64,000 nt of DNA from an uncultured Desulfobacterales bacterium (GTDB lineage Bacteria; Desulfobacterota; Desulfobacteria; Desulfobacterales; C00003060). This document shows positions 25,887-43,489 of the stretch, piece by piece. Numbering within the stretch: the stretch's first letter is position 1; each line of letters begins with the position of its first letter. The translations under genes and the position numbers were made by a program. The stretch lies in NCBI GenBank assembly GCA_964430705.1, contig CAYSGJ010000231.1:3245-67244 (forward strand). The letters are read 5' to 3'. Below the pieces are notes generated by a model. The model saw only the letters and a program-made list of their open reading frames with translations. It searched no databases and was not told the DNA's origin.

Positions 25887-25941
25887 CCGGAAACCCTCTG
25901 AGCCCGTGCAGGCTCAACACAATAGAGAAACGAGACAGTCT

Positions 25942-27184: not shown

Positions 27185-27222
27185 CGATTATTGCCTACAC
27201 GAGACTAAAGGGTTTTACGGCC

Positions 27223-27564
27223 ATGCTGCTGATCAGTAAAGAACAAATGAATGCCCTGGATGCCGCGATGGGCGAGCGTTTCATCCAGAAGATGTTGGAA
27301 CATCTTCGCGACGTCTTTTCAGAGGAGATCACGGAAAAGACGGACGAGGACATACGCGCCGTCATTGTGGATGGGATGATGAAAGCCTCCGCATACAACA
27401 TCACTGAAGAACAGGCAGTCGCTCTTTTTATTGATTTGAGGGTGGGAATGGGGCAAGATTTTGAACTGAAAAAGGGCAACGAATGGATGTTGTCCATAGT
27501 GGAAAAAGAAGATCTGTCGGGACAAGAAAAAATGGATCTTCTCTATGCGCGATTGCAGGATTAA
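27223..27564 (+). CDS. hypothetical 113-aa helical protein upstream of the effector candidate
   Basis: Start moved to ATG 27223 because the 5' extension covers the terminator-like structure. Acidic helical sequence with no assignable motif. Confidence 0.5.
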   Translation: MLLISKEQMNALDAAMGERFIQKMLEHLRDVFSEEITEKTDEDIRAVIVDGMMKASAYNITEEQAVALFIDLRVGMGQDFELKKGNEWMLSIVEKEDLSGQEKMDLLYARLQD

Positions 27565-27625
27565 CGCGGGACCATGGAATGCACCGTAAGTTTGTAAAGG
27601 ACTATGTTCAAGGAGCATAGCTTTC

Positions 27626-30600
27626 ATGAGTTGGCTTTCGAAAGCATACGAGAAGGTTAAAAAATCTTTCGGCAAGAAGGATGCGGAAAGCGCGAAGGAG
27701 AAATGCCCGAAGAAAGAAACCGGCCTGCTCGTTGTCGTACTGCGTAAAGAAAACCGCAGGCCGATTGAAAAAGCCGCTGTGCTTATCAAGGGGAAAACCG
27801 GTTCCAGCAAAAGGACCGATAAGGACGGCATTGCTTTTTTCAAGCCCTTGGAGCCGGATGCTTATGAGATCGACGTAACGCTGCCGCGGGATATGTCGGA
27901 GGATTATGAAAAACCGGAGGCGGGAAAACAAACCGTCGGCGAAGGGTCTTGCCCCATCAAGGTGGTTCATGCCGGATCGTTGGCCGCTTTGAAAGTGCAG
28001 GTTCATCACAAGGGGGATCCTGCAAAGGTATTGGGCGGCGCGACGATAGAGGTTTCGGGCGTCCAGTCCCATTCTCCGCAAAAGACGCAGAAAGCGGACG
28101 GCACGGCCGACTTTGGCAAGACAAAAGCCGGAAAATATACCATTCGCGCAACTCTCAAAGAAGAAGACAAGAAATCTTTTGGCGTGATCCATACTCCCGT
28201 CGAAGTCGTACTCCAAGCCGGAAAGGAAAAAGTCATTCCAATAGAAGTAGCCCCGGTCAATGTTGTCACCCCAAAAATTGACATGGAATATAAAGTGGTT
28301 CTTCTCGAGGCCGACCTTCCTGATCCCGAAAAAGCCAAGATAAACACCGATCCAACATATATCGTTGTCTATGTGGAACAAACGAACAAGAACAACCCGT
28401 TCAGGAATAATGGAAAACTGAAATGTTCCCCGGCAAAAGTAAAGGCTTTTCTGGATGAAGCCTGCACGAATGAGATTCCCGGTGAACCGGGAAGTGGTAT
28501 AACGCTGTCCAATGCGCAGCTGACCGGCGCTCAAAAAACGAAGATCTATCTTAAAGGAAAAACAGCCGGTCAGTTTGAGGTGTCGTTGGAGTTGGAAGAT
28601 CCATCCAACGGTTCTATTAAGGTAGAGAAGCCTGTTGAGACCAAGGGAAAGGAGAAGATGGGCGTTGTAAACCTTCAATTGCTGCTTTACCAACAGGATG
28701 CAGATGCTTTAAAAAACATCCAGGTAGATCCGGATGCAGATCCCCCGGCACTTTCTGCCCCGGACACATACGCTACGAAGCCCGAAAAATATCATGCCAA
28801 CTTGTTAAAACAATATCATGATAAACTGAGAGACAAGGCCCTTCCAGATCAGAAAGAAATGACTAATGATGAAAAGGTGAAAAAAAGTCGTTTGCTTCAT
28901 GTTCAAAAGGACGGGAACTTCGGCCGCGCAAAACTTGTCTGCAAAAAGTTGGACGCCGGACAATGGCCTGCGGGAACGGACAACTATGAAATTGTATTGG
29001 GTCAGCAAAAACAGAGCGGGCAAGTGGAGGCATACGACAAGGAATATGAGGGAACCGTCAAATCATTTCCCGTGAAGATTGCGCTTGGCGATTTGAAGGC
29101 CGGTGATCAGACCTTCTGGATACAGGGAAAAAGCGCCACGAAGAAATGGGGAGACGTCCGGCTGGATCTTGGAGTCGACCGGCCCGAAGGAGGGCTTGCG
29201 AAGAAACCGAAACGCAATGGGGACTGGGCCCGTTTCACCGTCGTTCAGATCCAAGAGGTCAAGATCTCCTACAAGGATGAGGCCGGCAAGGCATCGGCTT
29301 GGGATCAGTCCCAGCGAAGATTTTATATCAATTTGGCGGCCCAATGGGATACGACCAACAAGAAATTTACGACCGACGGGGATACCGATGAGAAGGGAAG
29401 GACGATTAAAATCGGTGCGCAGTTGAGTGAGAAGCTGAAGGATGTGACCATCCATTTCATGTTGGCGCCCGACAAAAACAATGGAAAGGCGGCGAACTGG
29501 GGCGTCGATCTTCCCCCGAAATGGAAATGGAACAAGATAGCCGTAACGCTCAAACACAAAGATAAAAAAGACCGAAAAGATCTGTTGCACCTGACGGAAA
29601 AAACGAATGACGAGGGCTACGCCGAAAAGGAACTGGTCCTGTCCCGCTTTGGTGGAGATAAGTTTACTCCGGGCTGTTATACCGATCAGGATCCGCATCT
29701 TGCCAAGTATGTGCACGGTCACACCGATCTTGAAAAGAAAAAGCCGGTTTTCGCCCCGTATGCCATAAGGATCTGGCGCAAATTCTGGTATCAATTTACC
29801 AAGGCCGACGGGTTTTCCCCGCCTTTGCCAGCTAATGCCGTGACGGCTTATCGGGACGTTCGCGCGCAAATGGTTCTGGATCAACAAAAGTCGTTTATTG
29901 AAACAGCGACAGGGACGGCCGGTGAAATCGTCGCCCCGGCGAGAACCTTTTATGAAGATTATATTCTAAACGGAGGAAACTCCACGACAAAGGTAGCCAA
30001 CGTGGGCGACTACAACAAGAACGCTATTGCCAATGCCGCCTATGAGGCAAAAAGCGATCAGCCTGTCAAGAATCAATTGATTGTGTGCACTTGCCAGTAT
30101 GATGTCAAAAAAAGCGGGAACAAGCGAAAGGCAACAGGGAGAAGTGCCGCCATTACATCGGATATCCACGGAACAAAGGTTAAAATCACAATGGATAAGC
30201 CGGTATTCGACCCGCCGCTCCACGGCGGTTCCATGGTGCACAAGCTGTACTGGTATCGCAAATCCGCTCCGGGAGTAAAACACAATATTGCGGCCGCAAA
30301 GGCCGGCATCCCGAAGCCCCGAGCGAACAACAGACAGATCGAGGTCGATGTTCCGGTGATTAATCCCGCTCCCGGCGCCGGCAACAACGCCGTCTATATC
30401 GTGGCAACCTGCTGGAGCCCTTGGGGACCCTATCTTGGCGAGAGTTTCGGAAAGCATTCACTCATTGTATACAAATCCACCAGCCAACTGTATAAAGATG
30501 ACTATCATGATACGGTCGTTCATGAGATTGGGCATGCCCTCAGGCAGGTCCCGAAACCCGGGAAACAACCCGGGCATCCGGGAGTTGTGGATCATCCGAA

Positions 30601-30781
30601 TCAGAAAGATGAAGGTCAGGGCAATCACTGCCGGGTGAATGACGGCGTGGACGCCGGAAAGACAAAGTATGTCTGCGTGATGTACGATTCGGGGCCGAAT
30701 CGGTTCAGCAAGCATGTGTATTGCAAGACATGCCATCCCTATATTTTGGTGGAGAATTTTTCCAGCTTTGACGATTTATGA
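27626..30781 (+). CDS. 1051-aa putative T6SS effector: two CarboxypepD_reg-like beta-sandwich repeats plus a C-terminal HExxH zinc metallopeptidase-like domain
   Basis: No signal peptide; Lys-rich N-terminus. Repeats are ..RTDKDGIAFFKPLEPDAYEIDV and ..KADGTADFGKTKAGKYTIRATL. HEIGH lies at nt 30521-30535, followed by GHPGVVDHPNQ..NHC..CKTCHPY. Located after vgrG, the adaptor and PAAR. Confidence 0.7.
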   Translation: MSWLSKAYEKVKKSFGKKDAESAKEKCPKKETGLLVVVLRKENRRPIEKAAVLIKGKTGSSKRTDKDGIAFFKPLEPDAYEIDVTLPRDMSEDYEKPEAGKQTVGEGSCPIKVVHAGSLAALKVQVHHKGDPAKVLGGATIEVSGVQSHSPQKTQKADGTADFGKTKAGKYTIRATLKEEDKKSFGVIHTPVEVVLQAGKEKVIPIEVAPVNVVTPKIDMEYKVVLLEADLPDPEKAKINTDPTYIVVYVEQTNKNNPFRNNGKLKCSPAKVKAFLDEACTNEIPGEPGSGITLSNAQLTGAQKTKIYLKGKTAGQFEVSLELEDPSNGSIKVEKPVETKGKEKMGVVNLQLLLYQQDADALKNIQVDPDADPPALSAPDTYATKPEKYHANLLKQYHDKLRDKALPDQKEMTNDEKVKKSRLLHVQKDGNFGRAKLVCKKLDAGQWPAGTDNYEIVLGQQKQSGQVEAYDKEYEGTVKSFPVKIALGDLKAGDQTFWIQGKSATKKWGDVRLDLGVDRPEGGLAKKPKRNGDWARFTVVQIQEVKISYKDEAGKASAWDQSQRRFYINLAAQWDTTNKKFTTDGDTDEKGRTIKIGAQLSEKLKDVTIHFMLAPDKNNGKAANWGVDLPPKWKWNKIAVTLKHKDKKDRKDLLHLTEKTNDEGYAEKELVLSRFGGDKFTPGCYTDQDPHLAKYVHGHTDLEKKKPVFAPYAIRIWRKFWYQFTKADGFSPPLPANAVTAYRDVRAQMVLDQQKSFIETATGTAGEIVAPARTFYEDYILNGGNSTTKVANVGDYNKNAIANAAYEAKSDQPVKNQLIVCTCQYDVKKSGNKRKATGRSAAITSDIHGTKVKITMDKPVFDPPLHGGSMVHKLYWYRKSAPGVKHNIAAAKAGIPKPRANNRQIEVDVPVINPAPGAGNNAVYIVATCWSPWGPYLGESFGKHSLIVYKSTSQLYKDDYHDTVVHEIGHALRQVPKPGKQPGHPGVVDHPNQKDEGQGNHCRVNDGVDAGKTKYVCVMYDSGPNRFSKHVYCKTCHPYILVENFSSFDDL

Positions 30782-31977
30782 TTTCTCACGTACCACATTT
30801 TACTTTGGCCGTAACGGCAACAATGCTTATCTGTAGCGGCTGTGTTGGTTGCGGACCGACCGGACAACCGGAAAGCCGGCGCAAAAACGCCAAGGAGATT
30901 TCCTCTATGCAGACAAAGAAAATATCAGGATCTGTTGATGCCGTGTCGGGGCTTCTTCGGTTATCCTCTGAGGCCTACTTCGATTTCGATGAATCGACCG
31001 AAGATAAAATCACCAACGAACTGATTGTAATGGATGAGTTCGAGGGTACGGCCATCGGAGCGCCCGGATCAGTGGATATTGCCTCCCAAACACAGCTGCC
31101 GGTGCTCTGGGTGAGAAGGGCTACCGGACTCAGGAGTTGGCAGGTGGAGGTACACCGAAATAGTATTGTTGTCCTCTCGGATTTAATCCGGGGCGAAATT
31201 TCATTGCATAACGCCTGGGGTGGGGAAAAAAGAATGGATTTGAGCGAAGTGCCTTTATCAAGTTCCGGCAACCGGCCCGCCCCGGATATGGCCGAAGGCG
31301 CAACAGTGAGTGCGGAAATTGTTGATCTTCGCTCTATTGCCAACTTTCCTTGGCAACCCGGCCGATTCGCAATTACCTTTATTATTCATGATTGGATGTC
31401 AAATACCGCCCTGGTAGAGCTGAATAGACATGGGGATGGTCTCACGCCCGACGAAGAGCGGGCGATATTTTTTCCAAGAGAGACAGCCGTCGACCTGGTA
31501 AAAATGTATAAAAAGGCCGCTAGTGAAGTCGATTCCGGCATTAGTATTATAGCTCACGAAAAAACCCCCAGGGTGGATAAGCCGGGAGTTGCTTTTGTAA
31601 CGGAAAAAAAGAAGGAACATGGTCTGGATCATTTGTTTGTTCATGGCGCGGCCAAATTGCCGGTTCAACTTGGAGCGATTGTCGAATTATCTGACGATGA
31701 AAAGTCACAACAGGCCGTGGCAATAGAACAGGACAATCTGCGAGCACCTGACGCGGTTGTCGGACTATTGTTGATTTTTAGTCATCTTGACGATCCTGAA
31801 CCCCAGCAAATGTATCTCCAGGTTCCGGTTTATTCAGAGGCAACATTGAAACCAGGAGACATAGTCGATGTGGCATTCAGCATCGATATCGTTGCGGCTT
31901 ACGGGGGATTTTTACCGGCAATTGACCTCATATATTTGGTGGGTGGAGAGTTTATTTACGGACCTTGCCGCACTTAG
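30778..31977 (+). CDS. putative cognate immunity protein (exported/lipoprotein-like)
   Basis: ATG overlaps the effector stop (ATGA, 30778-30781). Hydrophobic N-terminus FTLAVTATMLICSGCVGC. No enzymatic motif. The immunity role is inferred from position only. Confidence 0.5.
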   Translation: MISHVPHFTLAVTATMLICSGCVGCGPTGQPESRRKNAKEISSMQTKKISGSVDAVSGLLRLSSEAYFDFDESTEDKITNELIVMDEFEGTAIGAPGSVDIASQTQLPVLWVRRATGLRSWQVEVHRNSIVVLSDLIRGEISLHNAWGGEKRMDLSEVPLSSSGNRPAPDMAEGATVSAEIVDLRSIANFPWQPGRFAITFIIHDWMSNTALVELNRHGDGLTPDEERAIFFPRETAVDLVKMYKKAASEVDSGISIIAHEKTPRVDKPGVAFVTEKKKEHGLDHLFVHGAAKLPVQLGAIVELSDDEKSQQAVAIEQDNLRAPDAVVGLLLIFSHLDDPEPQQMYLQVPVYSEATLKPGDIVDVAFSIDIVAAYGGFLPAIDLIYLVGGEFIYGPCRT

Positions 31978-31993: not shown

Positions 31994-33070
31994 TTGCAGA
32001 AAAATCATTTAAAAAAAACCGAGATTATTTGTCCCCGATGCCGGCAAGCCGGCGCCGGCAAGATGATTCAGCATGCGTTGGAGCTTGGGGACGTTTTCAA
32101 GGAAGAAAATGGTTTTATCCTTGAAGGTTTTTTGATTTGCTCGAATGCGCAGTGCCGGTTCCGGCACCCCATTGTTCAAGGCGTTCCGATTCTCATGAAA
32201 AACCTGGAAGGCTGGTTGGAATCGGAAGAGACGACATCCGCCTTTGTTGCCGGCGATACGGCCGGCATGCAAAAATATCTCTATCGGTTGCAACAAAATG
32301 GAGCTCAGGCGGAAGCTGAAAGAAGTCTTTTGAGTACATACATGGATTTCCACTATGGAAGTCCTGATGATGTTCCGGATCCCTTGGCGCCATATACTGA
32401 TCCCAAAGCCCTTTGGCAAAGACTGGTCGAGACGGCGTTGCCTGAGGGGGAAAAAAAGTATAATCTCTCGCTGGATTTGGGATGTTCCGTGGGGCGATAC
32501 ACCTTTGAGCTGGCACGATTCAGCGCGTTGGCCGTCGGCGTGGATATGCACTTTCAAAAGGTTGCCGCCGCAGCGCGGCTTCAGAGGACTCGGCGGGTTT
32601 CTTATCAACGAAAAATGCATGGTCGTTGTTATGAAAACGTGGAGAGTTCTTTTTTACCCGTGCAAAACGCCTTGTTTCTTGCAGCCGATGCGCTGGATCC
32701 TCCGTTTCGTGCGGAAACCTTCGATCTTGTGGCCGGCCTGAATCTGCTCGACAACGTGCGTCTGCCGCTTGTGCTGATAGGACAGATGGATGCTCTGTTG
32801 AAAAAAGGCGGAACCATGGTGATGAGTTCGCCCTACGAGTGGAGGGCCGATATCTGTGAGCCGTCACAGTGGTTGGAAAGCCAAGACATGGCCGGCCCAG
32901 CTGCCGTCAGAAAGTTGCTGGAAGGAGCGATTCTTCCGGAGATGGGATTGACATATGAAGTCGTGGAGGACAGAGAGAATGTCCCCTGGATGCTGAGACA
33001 TCACGACCGGCACTGGAGTCTTTTCCTGCTGCATCTTCTGAAAGCCGGGAAAAAACAGGGTAGGCCGTAG
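31994..33070 (+). CDS. class I SAM-dependent methyltransferase with N-terminal Trm112-like zinc ribbon
   Basis: CPRC..(C..C)RFRHPIVQGVPILM ribbon followed by motif I SLDLGCSVGRY. The 5' end is uncertain: TTG 31994 keeps the CPRC pair, and the next ATG is 32063. Confidence 0.65.
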   Translation: MQKNHLKKTEIICPRCRQAGAGKMIQHALELGDVFKEENGFILEGFLICSNAQCRFRHPIVQGVPILMKNLEGWLESEETTSAFVAGDTAGMQKYLYRLQQNGAQAEAERSLLSTYMDFHYGSPDDVPDPLAPYTDPKALWQRLVETALPEGEKKYNLSLDLGCSVGRYTFELARFSALAVGVDMHFQKVAAAARLQRTRRVSYQRKMHGRCYENVESSFLPVQNALFLAADALDPPFRAETFDLVAGLNLLDNVRLPLVLIGQMDALLKKGGTMVMSSPYEWRADICEPSQWLESQDMAGPAAVRKLLEGAILPEMGLTYEVVEDRENVPWMLRHHDRHWSLFLLHLLKAGKKQGRP

Positions 33071-33200
33071 CTTCTTAAAAATGGCTGAAGTAGACGTAGC
33101 CTCAGCATTTCAAAGCGCTGAACTGGTACGAAAACAGTTTTTCGCAGAAGACAAAGAGAAAAGATGATTGCGCATACACACACAGATAGAGGATAAGCAT

Positions 33201-34052
33201 ATGCCTCCGATTAACACGCAACTCATGACCTTTACGGCGAAGATGACATTCATCGCCAATATGAAACCGCTTCCCATGGACTGGAATAAACCAGGGATTC
33301 AATACAACGACGCCTTCAAGCCGGAAGAATTGGCGGTCCCGATCAATGCGCCGGCCCCGCCGTACCTTTTCAGAGAAGCCACTCCCAATAAGTATCACGT
33401 GGACACGGCCAAAACCATCGGAAATCAACACGCGGACTTTATCGACAAAATATGCAATGCCATCGGATTTTCTCATGATATGTGGAGACTTCAGGCCAAA
33501 TTCAAGGATCTGAAGATCAACGCCCTTACCGCCCTTGGCCTCCCGGGATGTCTGGACGGGCCGGGGCTGGGACCCAATATTAAGAATGCTCCCGCGATGG
33601 CGGGCGCCACGAAACAGGAGAAAAAGTACGGAGCGGCGATTGCCGAAGCACTGGAAGACAAATACAAAAAGTGGCAGGACCATGTCATGGTCCCGGGGTT
33701 GCCGTGGTATCCGGCTTTTGTCGCCTTTCCGGGACCGATGGCGCCGCCGATGCCGAATATCCCCATGCCCTTGATCACCTGCCCGTCGCCCATGATGGGG
33801 GAGTTGAGCCCCCCCGTCCTCAAGCAGGCCATGGCGGATGCGCTGGGCGAAAAGGATGCTCTGCATCACAAAGAACTCTTCGACGCGGTGGCGACGGGTT
33901 TTTTCCTCGCGTTTATGTTGTGGTTGGTGTCTCAACAGGTCATGATGGTCATGGGCAAAGGCCCTATCCCCACGTTCGCACCGCCCTACGTTCCGGTAGG
34001 GCCGGTCGTAATGGGGGACAACATTCCCATTCCGGGACACTTGGCGGTGTAA
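33201..34052 (+). CDS. hypothetical 283-aa Pro/Met-rich protein with a C-terminal hydrophobic segment
   Basis: ATG 33201 with GAGGA 8 nt upstream. Pro-rich tracts PGLPWYPAFVAFPGPMAPPMPNIPMPL and GPIPTFAPPYVPVGPVVMG. Hydrophobic stretch VATGFFLAFMLWLVSQQVMMVMG. No known family recognised. Confidence 0.6.
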   Translation: MPPINTQLMTFTAKMTFIANMKPLPMDWNKPGIQYNDAFKPEELAVPINAPAPPYLFREATPNKYHVDTAKTIGNQHADFIDKICNAIGFSHDMWRLQAKFKDLKINALTALGLPGCLDGPGLGPNIKNAPAMAGATKQEKKYGAAIAEALEDKYKKWQDHVMVPGLPWYPAFVAFPGPMAPPMPNIPMPLITCPSPMMGELSPPVLKQAMADALGEKDALHHKELFDAVATGFFLAFMLWLVSQQVMMVMGKGPIPTFAPPYVPVGPVVMGDNIPIPGHLAV

Positions 34053-34132
34053 TCGGATTCAAGCAGAGGCGCCGGGTAAGCCTCTTTTAAGGGGGTAACA
34101 AAAAGCCGGCCCTCTGGACCCGGATCTTTATT

Positions 34133-35143
34133 ATGCTTATCGAAAACAATACTTGCTTTCAGCACTTTGCATTGCCCGGCATAGGGCCCTCGGACGGGCC
34201 GGTGGTGACCGTGGTGGTGAAAGGGACTTTTGACATCCCACACGAAGGGCCGGCGGTGGTCTCCGCCCAACAGGAGCCCATTTTTTTCGGTGATCAACTC
34301 CAGGATCCGAACAAGGGCGGCAGCACCCGGTTCGAAGACGATCTCGCGATTTTCAAGCCTCGATGCGATGTGGTAATCGTGGGCAAGGCGCTGGCGCCGA
34401 AAGGGTCCGGCGTGCAGGTGCTGGATGTCGGTTTTCATTTTGGAAAGATTCAAAAGATCGTTCGCGTTTTCGGCGACCGACATTGGCAATCCGGGGGACT
34501 CATGGGAGATGTCTTGGCGTCTGCGCCGGCACCGTTTGCCGAAATGGACCTGGTCTACGAAAATGCCTTTGGCGGCATGGATTTGACCTCGGGAGATTAT
34601 TGCGCTGAAAATCCTGTTGGCCGCGGCGTGATAAGCGGCAGGAAAAAGGATGCATGGGAATACAAAGCATTGCCCAATCTTGAAGACCCGAACAATCTGA
34701 TCAAGTCCTGGAAGGACCGACCAAGGCCGGTTGGTTTTGGTTTCATAGGAAAAGGCTGGGCTCAGCGGGTGCGGTATTTGGGCGCCTATGATGAGAAGTG
34801 GAAGAAAGAACGGTATCCCGGACGGCCCTTGGATTTTACGTTCGACTTTTTCAACGCTGCGCCGTTGGATCAACAAGTGGAAGGCTATTTAAAAGGAGAT
34901 GAATCGGGAGAGCTTTTTCATCTGACCCCGGAAGGTAAGAGATCCTTTGAACTGCCAGGGAAAAAACCCGTGGTCTCGGTGTCCAGATCCTTTGAAGGAT
35001 CGGATTTCGAAGACGTGTCCATGAATCTGGACACCCTTTGTCTCATGCCTGCAGAAGAACGATTTTATCTCCTGTGGCGCGGTCTGGTTGCCGTCGAAAA
35101 GATAGATGAACCGGATGTGGCGCGCATTAAGATCTCGGTGTGA
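34133..35143 (+). CDS. DUF2169-family T6SS adaptor-like protein, copy A
   Basis: VVVKGTFDI, DLAIFKP.CDVV.VG.A, VRVFGDRHW, MDLVYENAFGG and PNLEDPNNLIKSWKDRPRPVGFGF are the DUF2169 pattern. Confidence 0.8.
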   Translation: MLIENNTCFQHFALPGIGPSDGPVVTVVVKGTFDIPHEGPAVVSAQQEPIFFGDQLQDPNKGGSTRFEDDLAIFKPRCDVVIVGKALAPKGSGVQVLDVGFHFGKIQKIVRVFGDRHWQSGGLMGDVLASAPAPFAEMDLVYENAFGGMDLTSGDYCAENPVGRGVISGRKKDAWEYKALPNLEDPNNLIKSWKDRPRPVGFGFIGKGWAQRVRYLGAYDEKWKKERYPGRPLDFTFDFFNAAPLDQQVEGYLKGDESGELFHLTPEGKRSFELPGKKPVVSVSRSFEGSDFEDVSMNLDTLCLMPAEERFYLLWRGLVAVEKIDEPDVARIKISV

Positions 35144-36150
35144 ACTCTCCTGCTGAAAGAGTTGAAAATAAATTCTGTGTTATTTCCAACGAGAACGGCC
35201 CTTTTCAGTGCGAGAATCATTGTTCAGATATTTTTGGTGATGTTTTCGAAAAGAACCGGTCGTTTTTCCGCAATGCCGCCCTGCTTGCAGGTCTTGAACT
35301 GGGCGTTTTCCCATATCTGACGCATCCCATGACATGCGAGGAGCTTTCCTTCGCTTTATTGGGAAACCATTCGCGGCGGCTTCGCGCCCTGCTTAACGCA
35401 CTGGTTATCGAAGGCTATCTCCACAGGCAGGATGGCTTCAACTATGGGATAGCGCACGTGCCGGATTCGAAACCGGCATTGCCGAAATCGGGTTGGGGAA
35501 GATTGGCCGAGGTCATTTTCACGAATGAGCCCCTGCAAGACATGGACAACGCCGGCAGTGCGATGGAAATGCAAGCGCGGTTGCACGACCATTTGTTCGA
35601 GACGGGTTATCCGGCTGCCCTGAGATTATGGAGGCGTCTTGGCATAGAGACGGGAAGTTTGTTGGATATCGGCTCAGGTTCAGGGGCCTACAGTGCGGCG
35701 TTTCTTGATGTCAATGAAGATACTCTGGCGGCCCTTGTGGATCGTGATGATGTCTTGGAGCTGGCCCGCCGCCGTCTCGGGAAATATGCAAGCCGTGTTC
35801 GGTTTGAAAAAAGCGACGCATTTGAAACCGTTCCGGGCCGATATGACTTTGTACTTTTGGCCAATGTACTGCATTTGTGCGGCCCAACGGCCTGTATGGG
35901 CCTTGTAAACACGGCTGCGCAGGCTTTGGTTCCCGGTGGACGTCTGATCATAAAAGATCTACGCATTGAAAATAACCATACCGGTCCTCCCGTCTCCGTT
36001 TACTTCGCCCTGAATATGGCCCTTTATACGGAGGCCGGCGATGTTTATGCGAAGGACGATGTGTGCAGTTGGATCAGGGCCGTGGGCCTCCGGGATTTGC
36101 ATACGGTTAACGATTCCCGTAGTCTTGTTATCATTGCAAGCAAGAGGTGA
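35140..36150 (+). CDS. SAM-dependent methyltransferase, O-methyltransferase-like (N-terminal winged-helix/dimerisation region)
   Basis: GTG start overlaps the DUF2169-A stop (GTGA). Motif I is LLDIGSGSGAYSAAF, followed by DFVLLANVLHL and GGRLIIKD. Confidence 0.75.
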   Translation: MNSPAERVENKFCVISNENGPFQCENHCSDIFGDVFEKNRSFFRNAALLAGLELGVFPYLTHPMTCEELSFALLGNHSRRLRALLNALVIEGYLHRQDGFNYGIAHVPDSKPALPKSGWGRLAEVIFTNEPLQDMDNAGSAMEMQARLHDHLFETGYPAALRLWRRLGIETGSLLDIGSGSGAYSAAFLDVNEDTLAALVDRDDVLELARRRLGKYASRVRFEKSDAFETVPGRYDFVLLANVLHLCGPTACMGLVNTAAQALVPGGRLIIKDLRIENNHTGPPVSVYFALNMALYTEAGDVYAKDDVCSWIRAVGLRDLHTVNDSRSLVIIASKR

Positions 36151-36165
36151 AGGCGGATTTTTTTT

Positions 36166-37572
36166 ATGGCAATAGTCCTTTTGATCATGCCCGGACTGCC
36201 CCAGAAAAACGGGGCGCCGTACATCGGACAACAATACGTCGCGGCGAGTCTTCTGCGCGACGGTCACGAGGTGCGGTGTGTGGATCTTGCGGCGGTTGGG
36301 TCTACGAATTCCGAAGAAGACCTGGTTGCTTTGGCGGAGGCATTGGCGCCGGATATGATCGGAATGACCTTGTTTACGCAAAACGCGGCACGGGGATACG
36401 CACTTGCGAAAAAGCTCCGCCATGCGGGCAGGCTCCTGGCGGCAGGAGGTCCTCATGCGACGGTATTGCCCAATGAAGCGCTTGAGAATGGTTTTGAAGT
36501 TGCGGTTTGCGGAGAGGGAGAGCGGGTTGCGGTGTTGTTGGCCAGGTGGTTGGACAAAAAAGTAAAAGAACCGTTTCCGGAAATTGCCGGATGTCATACG
36601 CAAGGCGTCCGGGGTCTTGCTTGGAGTCCCATTGAAAACCTGGATGATCTGCCGTTTCCACATGAAAGCTATCCATGTTTTGACGAAAAGGCTTATTCCC
36701 CGGAAGGCATCGCGGTCATCGGCGGGATGATTACAAGCCGAGGTTGCCCGGCGCAGTGTACCTTTTGCGCCAACTATGTCACCGGACGCAGCCACCAATG
36801 GCGATCCGCCGCAAATGTGATCGAGGAGATGAAAGAGCTTCGCGTAGGATACAACGTGAGGCATTTTTCGATATGGGATGACGCTTTTGCGGCGAAACAT
36901 TCCCGGGTTGAAGAACTGTGTGAAGCCATGCTGAAGGAATACACTCTGAACGGCGTTACCTGGTCCTGTAACACGCCGGCAAATATGGTGAATCCCGAGG
37001 ATTTGGCGCTTATGCGAAAAGCGGGGTGCGCGGCGGTGAATTTTGGAATTGAAAGCGGCGACAAAGAAATTTTAAAGATCATTAAAAAGGGGCAACGGCC
37101 GGATCAGATCAAGAAAGCGGTGGCCGCCGCCAAAGCGGTTGGGATGACCACCATTGTCAACTTTATGTTCGGATTTCCCGAAGAAGGGATAGCGGAGTTG
37201 AACAACACCCTGCGTCTTATGACTGAGCTGGCGGACGACGCGGATTATTTCAATCACAGGGGTACGCTGACGCCGTTTCCCGGCACGGCGATATACGATC
37301 AATATCATGATCAATACGGTTTCAGCGAGTGGTGGCTCAATTCCGGCTATGTTCCGGATGAGCCAAGCTGGGCGGAGCTTGATCCGGAACAAGTCGGAAA
37401 ATATCTGGAACACGACCCCGTATTGGACCTGGACTTTTTTCATTACGCGAATGAGGTTCGCGAGAAGATTGCCGAGTGCATTGTTTTTAAGGCGAAACAC
37501 AATCAACATGCGATAATGCGCACACATGATACGTGTCACGGAGTAACCGGATCACGTGGAAATCATCAATAA
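36166..37572 (+). CDS. B12-binding (class B) radical SAM enzyme
   Basis: The N-terminal cobalamin-binding-type Rossmann region (..DMIGMTLFT..LLAAGGPHATV..VCGEGE) is followed by SRGCPAQCTFCANY (CxxxCxxC). Confidence 0.85.
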   Translation: MAIVLLIMPGLPQKNGAPYIGQQYVAASLLRDGHEVRCVDLAAVGSTNSEEDLVALAEALAPDMIGMTLFTQNAARGYALAKKLRHAGRLLAAGGPHATVLPNEALENGFEVAVCGEGERVAVLLARWLDKKVKEPFPEIAGCHTQGVRGLAWSPIENLDDLPFPHESYPCFDEKAYSPEGIAVIGGMITSRGCPAQCTFCANYVTGRSHQWRSAANVIEEMKELRVGYNVRHFSIWDDAFAAKHSRVEELCEAMLKEYTLNGVTWSCNTPANMVNPEDLALMRKAGCAAVNFGIESGDKEILKIIKKGQRPDQIKKAVAAAKAVGMTTIVNFMFGFPEEGIAELNNTLRLMTELADDADYFNHRGTLTPFPGTAIYDQYHDQYGFSEWWLNSGYVPDEPSWAELDPEQVGKYLEHDPVLDLDFFHYANEVREKIAECIVFKAKHNQHAIMRTHDTCHGVTGSRGNHQ

Positions 37573-38629
37573 TACGCCCCTTGAAGCGATAGCATTGCCC
37601 GGGGAAGTGTTCCGGGGGTGTCCTGTTTTGCTTGTGGTGGTCAAGGGGACTTTCGATATTTTTTCCGATTGTCGGGTCGTGGTGGCCCAAGAGCAGATCC
37701 CCATTGCTTTCGGAGACGAATTTTACGACGGGATGGGTCAGGGCAGTGTCAAGTTCGAGTCCGACATCGCCCCGTTCAAGTCCTGCGCGGATATCGTCTT
37801 GGTGGGAAAAGCCCACGCGCCGGCGGGACACCCTGTGCAGGTTTTGGATGTGATGCTCAGGGTCGGGACCACGAGCAGGATCATTCGCGTATTCGGTGAT
37901 CGGTTCTGGCGTGGCGGCGGAAGTCTGTCGCCGGATAAGCCGTCTGTTACGATGCCCTTTGTGACCATGGATCTCGTTTATGAAAAGGCCTTCGGGGGCA
38001 TCGACATGGAAGGCGGCGGTTATTGTGCGGAAAACATGGTAGGGAAAGGATTTCTGACCGGCAGATCAAAGATGTCCGCGGAAGGCATGCCCCTTCCCAA
38101 CCTTGAAGATCCCAACCATCTGATCAAATCATTGAAAGACCATCCGCGCCCGGTCGGTTTCGGTTTTTATCACAGAGCCTGGATGCCTCGGCTTGGATAT
38201 TTGCTGGCCTTTGAACGACAACAGAATCAGGAGCTTCCACCTGCAACAGTTGACGACTTGATTTTCGAGCAATACAATGGCGCCCATCCTGATTTACAAT
38301 TGGATGGCTATTTAAATGGTGATGAAGAAGTAGACCTGGTGAATCTCTCGCCTGAAGGAAGGGTTCGGTTTGAATTGCCCGGAACCAAAGTGACCTGCAA
38401 GGTGAGCAAAAAATCCGTTTCCGACGAGGAGACCCGGGAAGCGATGGGAGAAGAAAAGAGTGCCGTCGTAAAAGAAAAAGCAACAGAGGTAGAAGAAGAA
38501 ACAGTCCGACTTAACCTTGATACCCTATGTCTGATTCCCGAGGACAAGAAGCTGTTCATGCTGTGGCGAGGACTGTGTCCAATCGATACCTTGGATGCCG
38601 CGGAGGTGGACAGGGTTTATATTCTATAA
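37556..38629 (+). CDS. DUF2169-family T6SS adaptor-like protein, copy B (with acidic insert)
   Basis: GTG start overlaps the rSAM 3' end by 17 nt. It shares the conserved blocks of copy A (VVVKGTFDI, IRVFGDRFW, MDLVYEKAFGG, PNLEDPNHLIKSLKDHPRPVGFGF) and adds the insert SVSDEETREAMGEEKSAVVKEKATEVEEETV. Confidence 0.8.
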   Translation: MEIINNTPLEAIALPGEVFRGCPVLLVVVKGTFDIFSDCRVVVAQEQIPIAFGDEFYDGMGQGSVKFESDIAPFKSCADIVLVGKAHAPAGHPVQVLDVMLRVGTTSRIIRVFGDRFWRGGGSLSPDKPSVTMPFVTMDLVYEKAFGGIDMEGGGYCAENMVGKGFLTGRSKMSAEGMPLPNLEDPNHLIKSLKDHPRPVGFGFYHRAWMPRLGYLLAFERQQNQELPPATVDDLIFEQYNGAHPDLQLDGYLNGDEEVDLVNLSPEGRVRFELPGTKVTCKVSKKSVSDEETREAMGEEKSAVVKEKATEVEEETVRLNLDTLCLIPEDKKLFMLWRGLCPIDTLDAAEVDRVYIL

Positions 38630-38641
38630 CGGAGGTGACCT

Positions 38642-38878
38642 ATGTCAAACCCGGGACACGCTATGGCTGCAACCAATGCCGCCGACATTCAAGTCTTGCG
38701 GATGGAACTGAACCAACTGAAACTCAACCATCAGATGGCCATGACGCAACTGGCCAGAGGCATGAAAGAATTGACGGATTTGCTGGTGGAAAAAGGCGTG
38801 GCGGGGAAAAACGATATCCAGTCGCTCGCCGGCCTGAACATTTTTATGACCATGAATCATCAGCAAAACGAGTGGTAA
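38642..38878 (+). CDS. hypothetical 78-aa coiled-coil protein
   Basis: Strong RBS GGAGGTG 5 nt upstream of the ATG. Heptad-like DIQVLRMELNQLKLNHQMAMTQLARGMKELTDLL. Confidence 0.45.
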   Translation: MSNPGHAMAATNAADIQVLRMELNQLKLNHQMAMTQLARGMKELTDLLVEKGVAGKNDIQSLAGLNIFMTMNHQQNEW

Positions 38879-38947
38879 GGGGTGGTTGTTTTCAGTCTGA
38901 TCCTGTAAAATGGGATGCGGATTCGACCCGACCATTCAAACTTGCAC

Positions 38948-40501
38948 ATGACAAAACACATCGTCCTTGAAGAACTGCCTTCCGGTAGAACCCACGTGAT
39001 CGATCTGCCCTGCATGATCGGCCGGCGCGACGGCGCCGACCTGGCTGTTTCCGACCCTGCTGTTTCTCATGAGCACGCCCTGATTGAAGAAATCAACGAA
39101 CAACTATGGATTCAGGATCTAAACAGCGTCAACGGCGTGGTTGTCAATGGCGGAAAGATCAAGGATAGAGCAATGTTGCATTGGGGGAATCGCATTCAAT
39201 TGGGCCAAACCGAGTTCCTGGTCTCCCGGGAAAAGGAGAACGTTTCAGAACAAACGATCGTCTTGCATGCCGTGGGTTCGGAATCCGACTGGAGACCGGA
39301 CCAGAAGAGGCTCAAACTCCTGTACGGCATTACGACGGAGCTGGCCGAAAATCAGGATCTGGAGACGTTGGGGAAAAAGATCTTTTTGCGACTGCAAGAG
39401 ATTTTTGAACAGGACCGAGGTTATCTGGCTGCGTTTCAGGAAGACGGCGCCCTCAAACCGCTCTTTTCCCATTCTTTTTCCGGAACCGCTCCGATCAGCA
39501 GGAGCATTGTCAATCGGTTGTTCGAAAATGCGGAGTCATTTCTTCTGCAGGATGCATTGGGCGATGTCGGCTTCAAGGAACAAGAAAGCATTATTGGTCT
39601 GAGAATCCGTTCAGCGCTGTGCGCACCACTGATCTACCACGGTCAGATCTATGGAATGGTCTACTTGGATCGCAACGTCCCCGGGGCGTACAGGCAAGAA
39701 GACCTGGAACTGCTGAAAGCCATTGCCTTTATGCTTGCCCCCCTCATTGAGAACGCACGTCTTTGGTCGCAGCTCAACAGACAATATGCAAAGGCTGTGG
39801 AAACCTTGAAGAAGACGGAGTCGCGACTGATCGAAACAGAGCGCACGGCAGCGTATGTGCATCTGGCCCAGGCCATGGCCCATGAGATTCGGAACCCCCT
39901 CATGGCCATAGGAGGATTGGTCAAGCGAATGGATAAGGCAAGTCCGGCCGGTTCAAGCAACAGCAAGTTGAAGACGGTTATGGCCCTGGTGGAAAGAATG
40001 GAAACGGTTCTCAAAGAGGTGGACCGATTTGTGACGCTTCCCAAGCCCCGGAAGCAAATGGAGCGGATGGACCGTCTGATTCAAGAAATCGTTGAAAACT
40101 ATGATTGGGGTTCAGCGGGCCGTTCCCACGGTCCGTCCCTGTTCGTTCGCACTTCGCGACTGGCGATCCCGGTCGACGCCGAGTTGTTTACAAAAGCCCT
40201 TCACATGATTTTCAAGGAAATCCTTCTGAGCCCGTCTCAAGAGAAGGGGTTGGAAATCTCGGTGGAAGATTACGGCGATGCGCTTCAGATCCGCATGGGA
40301 TCCATCGAAAAGAACGGGCTGATGCGTGAACTGTTTGACGGTGAGCTGCAAGACAAGCCCTGGAGTCTAGGGCTGTTTTTGAACATAGCTCACAAAATTA
40401 TTTCCGATCATGGAGGCACGCTCCTCCTGGATTCGACGGGGAATTCGGTGTTGCCCGTGATCATTCGAATCCCCAGGATTGACAGAAAAAACGTTTTCTG
40501 A
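38948..40501 (+). CDS. FHA-GAF-HisKA sensor protein with an apparently degenerate ATPase domain
   Basis: FHA: IGRRDGADLAV.D..VSHEHALI....LWIQDLNSVNGVVVNG. The middle region is GAF-like. The H-box AHEIRNPLMAIGG is intact. In the C-terminal domain I cannot find the N-box Asn or DxGxG (KEILLSPSQ, MGSIEKNG); only SLGL...HGG remains. Confidence 0.75.
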   Translation: MTKHIVLEELPSGRTHVIDLPCMIGRRDGADLAVSDPAVSHEHALIEEINEQLWIQDLNSVNGVVVNGGKIKDRAMLHWGNRIQLGQTEFLVSREKENVSEQTIVLHAVGSESDWRPDQKRLKLLYGITTELAENQDLETLGKKIFLRLQEIFEQDRGYLAAFQEDGALKPLFSHSFSGTAPISRSIVNRLFENAESFLLQDALGDVGFKEQESIIGLRIRSALCAPLIYHGQIYGMVYLDRNVPGAYRQEDLELLKAIAFMLAPLIENARLWSQLNRQYAKAVETLKKTESRLIETERTAAYVHLAQAMAHEIRNPLMAIGGLVKRMDKASPAGSSNSKLKTVMALVERMETVLKEVDRFVTLPKPRKQMERMDRLIQEIVENYDWGSAGRSHGPSLFVRTSRLAIPVDAELFTKALHMIFKEILLSPSQEKGLEISVEDYGDALQIRMGSIEKNGLMRELFDGELQDKPWSLGLFLNIAHKIISDHGGTLLLDSTGNSVLPVIIRIPRIDRKNVF

Positions 40502-40589
40502 TTGTTTCTTTTCTCATATTGGATTGTTGAATCATGAATCAACGTTCATAACCGGAAACCGACAACAGAACCACAGAAAGGATGAAAGC

Positions 40590-41369
40590 ATGAAAAACGT
40601 CTGGCTAAGCGCTTTGGTTTCTTCAGAAGCGGCGGTACAAAAGGTCATGGCTCAACTGAAGACCTATGGCCTTCAGGTCGGCGGCCATTTCTGGGAAGAC
40701 GATCTGGAAAAAATGGCGTGGATGAAACCCCGGGGGGAACTTGTGGACAAGAAAGTCGTGCTTTGGGCCATTCTGGGTGCTGATCAGGATTTCCGGAATC
40801 CAGCGTTTCGCTACGGCCTTTCTATGCTCGCTATTGCGGTGCAAGCGCAACGGGGAATCGGCTTTCCCATTGTAATTTTGCAAACAGAAGGTGAGACCAT
40901 CGATCCGGAAACACTGACGACGCCGCTCAAGGCGGTGGATGTTTTCTCGGTAGGCGGTGCTACCGTCGGAGCAAAACTGGTTGCCAAGGTTCACAGCGCA
41001 TCCAAGGAAACAACGCATCCGGACTATCGCCTGGACCTATACGGCAATGAGCACCTAGGGCAGTGGTTTGAAGTCGGGCCGGCCGACGGGACCTGGTCCG
41101 GCGGCATGTTTGCCGTATCGGACGCAGACATTGTTTTCCACGGCGTGGGCCCAAAAGGAAACCTGCCGGAAAAATCGGTGCTTAACTACCCCATGGAGGG
41201 GCTGAAATTGCATTGGAACGGGCAAGAATTTGCGGCATGGGCCGTTCAGAACGAACTCGATGCGGACACCTCTTATTATGTGAAAGTGAAAGGGTCACCG
41301 GGCGCCATATTGTTCGGCTCTTACTCTCATGAAGAAGAAGCCGAGGTTTTTGCGGTTTGCCTTAAGTAG
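40590..41369 (+). CDS. hypothetical 259-aa protein
   Basis: ATG 40590 after GAAAGGA. No family recognised. Confidence 0.5.
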   Translation: MKNVWLSALVSSEAAVQKVMAQLKTYGLQVGGHFWEDDLEKMAWMKPRGELVDKKVVLWAILGADQDFRNPAFRYGLSMLAIAVQAQRGIGFPIVILQTEGETIDPETLTTPLKAVDVFSVGGATVGAKLVAKVHSASKETTHPDYRLDLYGNEHLGQWFEVGPADGTWSGGMFAVSDADIVFHGVGPKGNLPEKSVLNYPMEGLKLHWNGQEFAAWAVQNELDADTSYYVKVKGSPGAILFGSYSHEEEAEVFAVCLK

Positions 41370-41378
41370 TCATTTTTT

Positions 41379-41417
41379 TTGACATCATATCCGGAATCTG
41401 ATATACAAGTTATCAGA
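41379..41417 (+). promoter_or_regulatory. sigma-70-type promoter with an overlapping 7-bp inverted repeat (candidate operator)
   Basis: TTGACA (41379-41384), a 17-nt spacer, then TATACA (41402-41407). TCTGATA (41397-41403) and TATCAGA (41411-41417) flank and overlap the -10. It lies 25-60 nt upstream of ATG 41442. Confidence 0.45.
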
Positions 41418-41441
41418 ATTTCAAAAAAAAGGGGACTGCTC

Positions 41442-42215
41442 ATGGGCAATGAAGAAGTGGTCAGAAAGAATTTGGATAGTCAGGAATTCCTGCAGCTTCG
41501 TCAAGCTACGGAAAAAATCGCGGTTGCCTTGGGAAACCGGCTCAAGAATCATCTTTCTATACTACGGCCCCTGTTTGTACCTCGAAAGCTTTTTGGCACA
41601 TACGTCAAAAGCGCGTCCATGCAAGAAGTTCCCGGAGGAGACAAAGCCTTTGCGGAACTGCAGGAACGCTATGCCGCCGTCTGCGCGAAGCCGTTTAATC
41701 TGCCCAAGAGGCTCCAACCGCCGTTACCTCCCATATCGCATCAATTGGACGGCAGTCCTTTGCAATACACACTCGAATCCGCAGGATCGGCGGATAAGGG
41801 AACCAAGGTGACCTGTCCGACCAAATGGGTGCTGTCTTATCGCAGCGAATGCCCGATTTCTCGCCTTCATGCCATGGTTGCCGGCAAAGAAACCCCGCAG
41901 GCCGATGATGTTAAACAGGCCCTGATTGATTATCTGGCCATCGTGGTTTTTTTGAAACATTTTCCCGGTCTGACTCGGCTATTCGAGGACCTTCGGTATG
42001 AGGTGGAAACACAGGAGATATCGGACCTGGGAGGTCTTCCCGTGATTATTTTAAAAGCGCCTGTCAAGACGTTTTTGCCTCCGGATGATTTCATACAGCA
42101 AATTACCCAATTGTCCGGTATTCGCGCATTCCAGGAAATCGTTGATCTTGATGCCGCGGCACATATCCCGGATCCGTTGAAAGCGTCGATTGAGCAGGCA
42201 CTGGGCACCGCATAA
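41442..42215 (+). CDS. hypothetical 257-aa protein
   Basis: ATG 41442 with AAGGGG upstream. The TTG-extended version would swallow the promoter. No family recognised. Confidence 0.5.
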   Translation: MGNEEVVRKNLDSQEFLQLRQATEKIAVALGNRLKNHLSILRPLFVPRKLFGTYVKSASMQEVPGGDKAFAELQERYAAVCAKPFNLPKRLQPPLPPISHQLDGSPLQYTLESAGSADKGTKVTCPTKWVLSYRSECPISRLHAMVAGKETPQADDVKQALIDYLAIVVFLKHFPGLTRLFEDLRYEVETQEISDLGGLPVIILKAPVKTFLPPDDFIQQITQLSGIRAFQEIVDLDAAAHIPDPLKASIEQALGTA

Positions 42216-42591: not shown

Positions 42592-43488
42592 ATGACGACG
42601 TATAGATATATCATGCGGGCAAGCTTTTTTTTTCTATGGATGGGCTTGTCGGCAACGTGTTGGGCCGGTCAGTTCGTGACGCAAGAACTCAGAACCTGGG
42701 CAACAGATGCCGTCGAGAAAGAAAGCGCCCTGGAAACCCGGAGTGCCGACAAACGCACCCTGGCTGTCCTTTATTTTCACAACAAGACAGGGTGGGCTGA
42801 ATTAAAGCCGGTTGAAAAGGGCTTGGCCATTATGCTCATTACCGACTTGGCCAAGGTCAAGGAAATCCAATTGGTGGAAAGAGCCAGAATACAAGCCCTG
42901 GTGGAAGAGTTGGATTTTGGAATATCCGACTTGGTTGTCGCAGAGCATGTCCCTCGGGTGGGGAGGCTTTTGGGTGCTACCCTGGTGGTAGGCGGGGCCA
43001 TCGAAAAGAAAAACCAAGCTGAGTTTCAACTCAGCTCAGGTTTGATGAACGTGCCCGGGGAAAAGATGCTGGGAGAACCGACCGTGGGGGGCAAGCTTTT
43101 GGAAGAGTTGTTCCGCATGGAAAAAGATCTCTTGTTTGAGATCATCAGACTCTTGGAGATTGAACTCACGCCGGAGCGTCTGGCTGAGCTAAGAGAGCCC
43201 TTGACGGACAGCCTGGAGGCCCTATTGTACTTTTTTCAGGCCATCGAAGCAGCCGATGAGGGGGATTTCAAAGATGCGAATGATTTGTTGGATAAATCGT
43301 TGGGTGAAGATCCTGATTTCAGTCTTTCCGGGAATGCGAAGAGAGAAATCGCCGGGATTATCCCGGCCGACCAACGGTATTCAAACCAGGCAAACGGCAA
43401 TGGGAACGGTGCGGAGATTAAAAAAGAGTGCGCTGCGGCCCGGAACAATTTAAAAAGAAACGTTTTTAAGTCAAGACGAAGATTCTGA
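42592..43488 (+). CDS. exported protein: CsgG/LpoB-like periplasmic module plus TPR-like C-terminus
   Basis: Signal peptide ASFFFLWMGLSATCWA. Module signature LAVLYFHNKTG..LVERARIQALVEELDFGISDLV..VGRLLGATLVVGG is shared with two neighbouring proteins. Confidence 0.6.
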   Translation: MTTYRYIMRASFFFLWMGLSATCWAGQFVTQELRTWATDAVEKESALETRSADKRTLAVLYFHNKTGWAELKPVEKGLAIMLITDLAKVKEIQLVERARIQALVEELDFGISDLVVAEHVPRVGRLLGATLVVGGAIEKKNQAEFQLSSGLMNVPGEKMLGEPTVGGKLLEELFRMEKDLLFEIIRLLEIELTPERLAELREPLTDSLEALLYFFQAIEAADEGDFKDANDLLDKSLGEDPDFSLSGNAKREIAGIIPADQRYSNQANGNGNGAEIKKECAAARNNLKRNVFKSRRRF

Positions 43489-43489
43489 T

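Follow-up and report, generated by a model that had tools for sequence, protein, structure and literature searches.

A hypothetical protein family linked to radical SAM enzymes and methyltransferases, and to PAAR and DUF2169 genes in type VI secretion loci including that of an uncultured Desulfobacterales bacterium

Results

Seven genes in the cargo region of a type VI secretion cluster

We analysed 64,000 nt of DNA from an uncultured Desulfobacterales bacterium (GenBank assembly GCA_964430705.1, contig CAYSGJ010000231.1, positions 3,245 to 67,244 of the forward strand; hereafter "the window", whose own coordinates are used for its features), in which seven consecutive + strand genes belong to the cargo region of a type VI secretion system (T6SS) gene cluster. 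The T6SS is complete: Pfam searches identified a TagH-like protein, TssJ, TssK, TssL and TssM, TagF, TssA, TssB and TssC, Hcp, TssF, TssG, ClpV and VgrG. The VgrG spike protein, the presumed carrier, is encoded on the same strand as the seven genes (23832-25886, + strand; Phage_GPD, Phage_base_V and Gp5_trimer_C), and is followed on its 3' side by a DUF4123 gene (25876-26502) and then by a gene for a canonical PAAR protein of 106 aa (26709-27029, + strand; PF05488, 2.7e-11).

The first gene of the block encodes MT1 (31994-33070), which combines a Trm112-like zinc ribbon with a class-I S-adenosylmethionine (SAM) methyltransferase domain (Methyltransf_11, 1e-9; Methyltransf_31). It is followed by p283 (33201-34052), a 283 aa protein that we discuss below as a putative substrate or cargo; DUF2169-A, a TvpA-like chaperone (34133-35143; PF09937, 2e-90); MT2, a SAM methyltransferase of the O-methyltransferase family (35140-36150; Methyltransf_2, PF00891, 6e-12); a B12-binding (class B) radical SAM enzyme with a CPAQCTFC motif, hereafter rSAM (36166-37572; PF02310, 4e-16; PF04055, 7e-28); DUF2169-B (37556-38629; PF09937, 2e-78); and p78, a small coiled-coil protein of 78 aa (38642-38878). 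Neither p283 nor p78 matched any Pfam or NCBIfam family, even at E ≤ 10. All seven open reading frames (ORFs) listed in a preliminary description of this DNA are present, and Pfam confirmed the classes that it had assigned from the sequence to the two methyltransferases, rSAM and both DUF2169 proteins, the latter at 303 and 264 bits against a cut-off of 25. Its statement that the two DUF2169 copies align end to end was likewise borne out (46% identity, E 1e-105), as was the acidic insert in copy B.

The gene overlaps that the same description had pointed to can be read directly from the DNA. The stop codon of DUF2169-A and the start codon of MT2 overlap in GTGA at 35140-35143, and the DUF2169-B gene, starting at a GTG (37556), shares 17 nt with the rSAM gene, whose TAA stop is at 37570-37572; this GTG is supported as the start because the N-terminus that it gives aligns with that of copy A. 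MT1 starts at a TTG at 31994, 17 nt past the upstream stop codon. We favour this start because it keeps the zinc ribbon and matches the lengths of homologues (356-361 aa); the contig is also on record from the Joint Genome Institute as sediment-metagenome contig MLSed_10000229, and the call of MT1 there, 335 aa long, would cut the ribbon. A promoter and terminator scan of 26-43 kb found nothing exceeding background within the block.

p283 accompanies SAM-dependent enzymes outside T6SS loci

For a census of rSAM homologues we used one genome per GTDB species, which gave 53 loci (referred to, like the metagenomic loci below, by L numbers), 47 of them in the bacterial family; the loci were probed by tblastn with all window proteins, and their ORFs were clustered. 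A p283 gene lies within 6 kb of rSAM in 26 of the 47 loci. These p283-rSAM loci span Roseibium, Acidobacteriota, Verrucomicrobia, Rhodocyclaceae, Gemmatimonadota, Eisenbacteria and Myxococcota, and only three of them (L009, L021 and L022) have T6SS genes within 10 kb. A class-I methyltransferase is a companion in 22 loci, and 13-14 have a PhyH dioxygenase. Loci that lack DUF2169 have housekeeping surroundings, such as genes for ribosomal protein S1, 5-enolpyruvylshikimate-3-phosphate synthase or anthranilate synthase, and no other biosynthetic, transporter or precursor-supply gene recurs with the module in the census; only p283 is constant.

Two look-ups of p283 that were blind to its neighbours gave different enzyme sets. 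The first returned p283 with a B12-rSAM. The second (P0146) returned p283 followed by a 623 aa double radical SAM protein, which has no B12 domain, and a 195 aa membrane methyltransferase of the ICMT/PEMT type. Thus, p283 is the constant member of these loci, and the enzymes around it vary. Two loci of the census have unusual p283 genes: acidobacterial L040 carries two tandem paralogues upstream of rSAM (3458-5078), and in L021 the gene is split into two ORFs (2995-3655), which could reflect a frameshift, an assembly error or a pseudogene.

p283 accompanies PAAR and DUF2169 within T6SS loci

Scanning metagenomes with a DUF2169 alignment, we kept 80 loci, and p283 lies directly upstream of DUF2169 in 16 of these. 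A canonical PAAR gene, 70-80% identical to that of the window, is upstream of p283 in all 10 metagenomic loci that could be evaluated. The two genes are adjacent in eight; MT1 stands between them in L063, and DUF4123 and MT1 in L091. In L009, L021 and L062 too, PAAR is upstream of p283, the two being adjacent or separated by no more than MT1, DUF4123 or small ORFs, and identity of the window PAAR to its counterparts across related loci is 70-88%. In the window itself the spacing is larger, an effector-like cassette and MT1 being inserted between PAAR and p283. MT1 is kept beside p283 in three of the 16 metagenomic p283-DUF2169 loci (L063, L065 and L091), all of which lack rSAM, and L063 has A and B paralogues of DUF2169 next to each other. 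Linkage to vgrG, as in the window, is seen in L022, L062, L063, L067, L079, L080, L098 and L115. No conserved small gene follows p283 in the loci with the PAAR-p283-DUF2169 triad.

The preliminary description took DUF2169 proteins to load a neighbouring toxin, which is out of date: DUF2169 (TvpA) is a chaperone for DUF4150/PIPY, the PAAR-like domain at the spike tip (Sachar et al., 2025, PMC11883445; Monlezun et al., 2026, PMC13373197), shielding a hydrophobic spike-tip protein (PMC13373197), and was reported to co-occur strictly with DUF4150/PIPY and to be found rarely near canonical PAAR (PMC11883445). About one-fifth of DUF2169 genes were left unclassified in the published work on PIPY chaperones. 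A profile of 11 related DUF2169 sequences matches PDB entry 8VTH, a solved DUF2169 structure, at 7e-31. Among the scanned window ORFs, none matched DUF4150/PIPY (PF13665) above threshold, and tblastn with seven confirmed PIPY domains found none in the 22 p283-type loci (the window and 21 related loci). As a positive control, PIPY was found in 11 other DUF2169 loci of the same sample, 3' of more distant DUF2169 genes (PF13665, 1e-35 to 1e-43). The window PAAR was itself considered as a PIPY domain and ruled out (hhalign probability 1.6%). Nor did the scanned window ORFs include a marker of the published synteny types (thiolase-like/PRK06147, stand-alone DUF6484, pentapeptide-repeat fusion or DUF3540), the one DUF6484 match being a 22-residue stretch within VgrG. 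Given the combination of canonical PAAR, p283 and DUF2169 with no PIPY, we place the window in a DUF2169 arrangement outside synteny types A-C.

p283 therefore has two independent linkages, to SAM-dependent enzymes outside T6SS loci and to PAAR and DUF2169 within them. This bears on a possibility raised in the preliminary description, namely that homologues of the enzymes might lie mainly outside T6SS loci, which would point to a fortuitous insertion. The distribution is indeed of that kind, with DUF2169 in only three of the 47 census loci; fortuitous insertion is not the reason, because p283 recurs with the enzymes outside T6SS loci and with PAAR and DUF2169 inside them. The 283 aa protein, which had been treated as a side item, is instead the hub common to both sets of loci.

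The two linkages are merged in a conserved cassette

The enzymes associated with p283 are interleaved with the PAAR-p283-DUF2169 genes in one subclade. This merged form, to which the window belongs, is a conserved T6SS-linked cassette. Besides the window, at least five loci have it, with rSAM identities of 54-70%, and three of these are in GTDB metagenome-assembled genomes (MAGs) from three lineages. The loci are L007/L009 (Desulfobacterales MAG), L062 (Deltaproteobacteria MAG), L021 (Nitrospirae MAG), L022 (Victivallales MAG) and L008. The closest relatives come from Desulfobacterales and Deltaproteobacteria MAGs. Those of the window rSAM, at 67-70% identity, share the arrangement. The gene order is PAAR, MT1, p283, DUF2169, MT2, rSAM, DUF2169, p78 in L007/L009, and L062 carries this block too, downstream of VgrG and DUF4123. 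L008 has MT2, rSAM, DUF2169 and p78, and L021 has PAAR, p283, MT2, rSAM and DUF2169; in L022 the order is p283, DUF2169, MT2, rSAM, with MT1 and PAAR on the opposite strand and PAAR beyond rSAM. The flanking genes differ among these loci, which argues that the block behaves as a unit.

Finer features of the block are kept as well. The 4 nt overlap between DUF2169-A and MT2 is also present in L007. The DUF2169 proteins fall into an A-type subclade, kept in L007, L062, L063 and L022, and a B-type subclade, kept in L007, L008, L062 and L063. p78 follows the B-type gene at 55-63% identity in L007/L009 and L008, and L062 has a 78 aa ORF at the same position. MT2 is paired with rSAM in L008, L009, L021, L022 and L062, and also in a Myxococcales locus without a T6SS (L011). 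Neighbour-joining trees place the T6SS-linked rSAMs in one clade; p283 copies from loci with both rSAM and DUF2169 form one clade, and those from T6SS loci without rSAM form another. One member of the T6SS clade of rSAMs, in L020, stands alone with uninformative neighbours.

p283 is a large, conserved family without a described relative

The p283 family comprises 1670 homologues in 90% clusters and about 750 clusters at 50% identity, and no source that we consulted names it. The conserved core is the C-terminal ~200 residues, in which 42 columns are invariant, 16 of them prolines; mean column identity across phyla is 55%. The invariant motifs are GxPGCLxGP, VPGLPWYPAF, APPxPNxPxPL and GKGPxPTFAPPxVPxGPV...PGHL. 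Charged residues are almost never invariant, and this, together with the invariant prolines, makes the profile unlike that of an enzyme. A confident AlphaFold2 (AF2) model (pLDDT 81.6, pTM 0.80) is mainly helical, and its least ordered parts, residues 171-190 and 251-283, are the most conserved proline-rich segments. Foldseek found no relative of this model in the PDB (best E 0.5), a profile search of PDB sequences gave nothing meaningful, and p283 has no detectable similarity to known Tvp components. A plasmid collection contained no match, and no Pfam domain was found in long p283 fusion proteins.

In at least 15 of 150 p283 representatives, the usual N-terminus is replaced by a signal peptide of the twin-arginine translocation (Tat) or general secretory (Sec) type. 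An rSAM-linked copy from Eisenbacteria is among the proteins with a signal peptide, and begins MTRRQVLTMIGALMG. These signal peptides suggest that the core domain works outside the cytoplasm in at least part of the family. Since the neighbouring enzymes require the cytoplasm, an exported p283 is the pattern expected if the protein is modified first and then exported.

Two other identities for p283 were considered and rejected. Its PIPTF and PPYVP motifs and its position beside DUF2169 raised the idea of a PAAR-like or PIPY protein; hhalign gave a probability of 0.5%, the model is mainly helical, and Foldseek found no match even though PAAR structures are in the PDB. A precursor of a ribosomally synthesized and post-translationally modified peptide (RiPP) is not expected to have 283 aa, a predicted fold and the column identity given above, and no gene for a protease, a RiPP recognition element or a transporter recurs beside p283.

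The enzymes have intact catalytic signatures

The radical SAM enzyme has the class B architecture, with a B12-binding domain (PF02310, 59.6 bits) and a radical SAM domain (PF04055, 98.4 bits), and C194, C198 and C201 are invariant among 16 homologues. The CxxxCxxC motif and B12 domain of rSAM and the SAM-binding GxGxG motifs are all intact in the window. All NCBIfam equivalogs score far below their cut-offs against rSAM: the best is the RiPP enzyme ApyD (139 bits against 750), and the nearest models also include HpnJ (126 against 578), BchE (113 against 481) and PhpK. The rSAM family is large, with more than 1000 matches at E ≤ 1e-20, the top 120 of which are all 53-70% identical to the window protein. 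From its domains, rSAM may transfer a methyl group to an unactivated carbon.

MT1 has an N-terminal CPRC...C..C ribbon that matches Trm112 weakly. Its nearest curated relative is the C-terminal methyltransferase of OvoA (TIGR04345), which at 100 bits against a cut-off of 170 is below threshold and indicates a resemblance only. MT2 matches PF00891 at 45.9 bits against a cut-off of 22.3, with a weak match to the dimerisation domain.

Genes flanking the cassette

Between PAAR and MT1 lies the effector-like cassette of three genes (27163-31977), none of which has a significant Pfam family. The first encodes a 133 aa protein with an N-terminal motif, M(L)xI(R/S)KEQ(M/L), that also precedes variable large genes after DUF4123 in L080, L098, L063 and L022. 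The second (27626-30781) encodes a 1051 aa protein with a C-terminal HEIGH (HExxH) motif and weak CarboxypepD_reg and Ig-like matches, which is a plausible effector for the DUF4123 adaptor. The third encodes a 399 aa protein with a lipoprotein-like N-terminus. The trio is probably a DUF4123-dependent effector with an immunity protein. Hence, the earlier statement that no toxin domain flanks the adaptors stands at the level of Pfam and does not extend to the 1051 aa protein.

Directly 3' of the seven genes, an FHA-GAF-HisKA protein is encoded at 38915-40501, in which no HATPase_c domain was detected; a homologue with 53% identity is also 3' of the cassette in the Nitrospirae locus L021 (8404-9948). 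The next two genes, for p296 and p278 (40479-42215), come after DUF2169 in many metagenomic loci and were considered as DUF2169-specific partners. This was rejected, since both are present in the T6SS of L145, which has neither DUF2169 nor p283; they are backbone genes of this T6SS lineage. The two conserved, family-less proteins of about 259 and 257 aa (window 40479-42215; L145 9165-10762) are part of this Desulfobacterota-type T6SS backbone. An AF2 model of p278 (pLDDT 74.9) had no match in the PDB. Further 3' of the T6SS genes, 42592-48200 encodes two CsgG-like lipoproteins, an AhpC/TPR protein, a Ser/Thr kinase with PEGA and a trypsin-like protease; this set recurs beside the T6SS of L145 and may be a conserved regulatory or envelope module of this T6SS lineage. 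At the other end, where the T6SS cluster starts, a 790 aa ORF without a Pfam family (3036-5408) immediately precedes the TagH-like gene. GC content drops to 0.43 at 52001-54000, between an acetyl-CoA synthetase gene and a LysE gene, compared with ~0.51 in the rest of the window.

Discussion

The seven genes form a conserved accessory or cargo cassette in the variable region of a T6SS cluster, with p283 as its hub. Like the described DUF2169/PIPY systems (types A-C, Sachar et al., 2025, PMC11883445; Tvp classes I-III, Monlezun et al., 2026, PMC13373197), the window has single-domain DUF2169 downstream of vgrG, in a T6SS cargo region, with a gene for a small spike-tip protein in the conserved set. 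It differs from these systems in having a canonical PAAR in place of PIPY, two DUF2169 paralogues, no type markers and a new partner, p283, beside DUF2169, and in having SAM-dependent enzymes interleaved with the chaperone genes. An enzyme-fold protein between DUF2169 and its client, as in the window, is also a feature of type A/Tvp class II (PRK06147; Pseudomonas aeruginosa PA0094-PA0101). A structural role is assumed for that enzyme-like protein, which is predicted to belong to the chaperoning complex, whereas the window enzymes retain their catalytic signatures and belong to families that accompany p283 outside T6SS loci. As the preliminary description had supposed, no described DUF2169 synteny type contains radical SAM or methyltransferase enzymes. 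Our literature search turned up no study connecting DUF2169 with radical SAM enzymes; papers that mention DUF2169 together with methyltransferases, or radical SAM together with T6SS and PAAR, look unrelated from their titles and abstracts. In a 2026 review of T6SS accessory factors, no word starts with "methyl".

For the chemistry, the closest parallels are RiPP tailoring of the proteusin type and protein methylation of the Mmp10 type. In the former, exemplified by polytheonamide, B12-rSAM C-methyltransferases, a SAM N-methyltransferase and an Fe/2OG hydroxylase act on a single precursor. The p283 loci are similar in that a B12-rSAM, a class-I methyltransferase and a PhyH-type oxygenase cluster with one constant protein; p283 differs from a proteusin precursor in its length of 283 aa, its predicted fold (pTM 0.80), its conservation across phyla and its lack of a variable core. 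B12-radical-SAM methylation of a protein is known from Mmp10, which acts on methyl-coenzyme M reductase. By analogy, Mmp10 would be the nearest precedent in mechanism if rSAM acts on p283, since there too a class B enzyme is paired with a folded, conserved protein. The window rSAM matches the related model TIGR04014 weakly, at 83 bits against a cut-off of 360, and the substrate families are unrelated.

The reading that we favour, with a confidence slightly short of even and from gene content and neighbourhood, is that p283 is tailored by MT1, MT2 and rSAM in the cytoplasm, after which the DUF2169 paralogues hold it for loading onto VgrG-PAAR. In such a scheme, rSAM would most likely C-methylate p283, or introduce another radical modification, and MT1 and MT2 would add N- or O-methyl groups; the likely targets would be the invariant, poorly ordered proline-rich segments. 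DUF2169-A and DUF2169-B would act as they do for PIPY, shielding a hydrophobic client (in this case p283 and/or the canonical PAAR) and keeping a VgrG-PAAR-p283 assembly secretion-competent, so that p283 could exit the cell on the spike. Of the three readings offered in the preliminary description, modification of the 33201 product before loading is the best supported. Recruitment of a substrate to rSAM by DUF2169 is weakened, because p283-DUF2169 loci without rSAM and p283-rSAM loci without DUF2169 are both common. The third, a non-protein product, is quite unlikely in our view and is taken up below. A wider version of the proposal holds that p283 is the first T6SS substrate to be matured by radical-SAM and methyltransferase chemistry before DUF2169 mounts it, and that the family is a new class of large, cytoplasm-tailored proteins (by B12-rSAM, methyltransferase and PhyH enzymes) with lineage-specific export by Tat, Sec or T6SS; we consider this rather unlikely as a whole.

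Several observations weigh against the favoured reading. Sixteen metagenomic p283-DUF2169 loci, on contigs of up to 21 kb (L063, L079, L080, L098 and L115 among them), have neither rSAM nor MT2, and since so many triad loci lack these enzymes, rSAM tailoring is not obligatory for the T6SS role unless the enzyme is encoded elsewhere in those genomes. Between p283 proteins from rSAM-linked and rSAM-less loci, only columns 99, 111/113, 167-169 and 241 differ; the proline-rich motifs are kept in the rSAM-less copies too, and so point to no modification site. In L069 (436-3632), a divergently transcribed B12-rSAM-like gene, with only 34% identity to the window rSAM, precedes a B-type DUF2169 by 0.7 kb and no p283 intervenes; p283 as the hub leaves this second rSAM-DUF2169 adjacency unexplained. 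The enzyme families are themselves ambiguous: class B radical SAM enzymes are not all methylases, BchE and HpnJ being non-methylating, and the families of MT2 (O-methyltransferase) and MT1 (OvoA-C-like) mostly methylate small molecules. Finally, p283 is unlike typical antibacterial effectors in being highly conserved rather than polymorphic, with no adjacent immunity-like gene.

This last property would be readily understood if p283 were a second spike-tip accessory, comparable to TvpD/PA0098 or TvpB, that wraps PAAR on VgrG together with DUF2169, the enzymes, where present, acting on p283 or PAAR to adjust assembly. Adjacent putative effectors vary while the PAAR-p283-DUF2169 triad itself is conserved, and in the Tvp class II and III systems already published, further conserved proteins work beside DUF2169, including a thiolase-like protein with an enzyme fold. 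An accessory role is nonetheless unlikely, in our view: it leaves unexplained both the many loci in which p283 accompanies rSAM, methyltransferase and PhyH genes without a nearby T6SS and the Tat and Sec signal peptides on some copies, and p283 resembles no known Tvp component or PDB fold. Alternatively, rSAM, MT1 and MT2 (with PhyH elsewhere) could build or modify a small molecule or lipid, for which p283 would be a carrier, scaffold or binder, the T6SS-linked version delivering or using the product. MT2 belongs to an O-methyltransferase family with a dimerisation domain, the closest curated relative of MT1 methylates thiohistidine, PhyH enzymes often act on small molecules, and the models nearest to rSAM include HpnJ, BchE and PhpK alongside the RiPP enzyme ApyD. 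We regard a small-molecule or lipid product as quite unlikely, given that no conserved biosynthetic, transporter or precursor-supply gene joins p283 as a constant member, and that differing radical SAM and methyltransferase types around p283 are the pattern of tailoring enzymes converging on one protein.

It is also conceivable, and in our judgement very unlikely, that the enzymes are uncoupled from the T6SS, the MT2-rSAM pair travelling with p283, or having been inserted between duplicated DUF2169 genes, with an unrelated housekeeping target. Most rSAM homologues do have housekeeping surroundings without DUF2169, the DUF2169 paralogues of L063 are adjacent with no MT2-rSAM pair between them, and L011 has the pair with neither p283 nor a T6SS gene. 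Lack of coupling is hard to reconcile with the retention of the merged arrangement in at least five further loci with differing flanks and gene order, with the single clade of T6SS-linked rSAMs, with the overlaps that tie the enzymes to both DUF2169 genes, and with MT1, which follows p283 into T6SS loci independently.

The role of DUF2169 as a chaperone of the PIPY spike tip has been described only recently, and the locus adds to it an arrangement with canonical PAAR, p283 and DUF2169 and without PIPY, which it links to radical-SAM and methyl-transfer enzymes. Tailoring of a protein before it is loaded onto the spike has not been described for the T6SS, and there is a realistic chance that this cassette is the first example of an enzyme-tailored T6SS cargo. 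If p283 is indeed modified before loading, post-translational tailoring would be a new layer of T6SS cargo biology, and the cassette would provide the first functional handle on two large "hypothetical" families, p283 and its B12-rSAM partner, that co-occur in many phyla.

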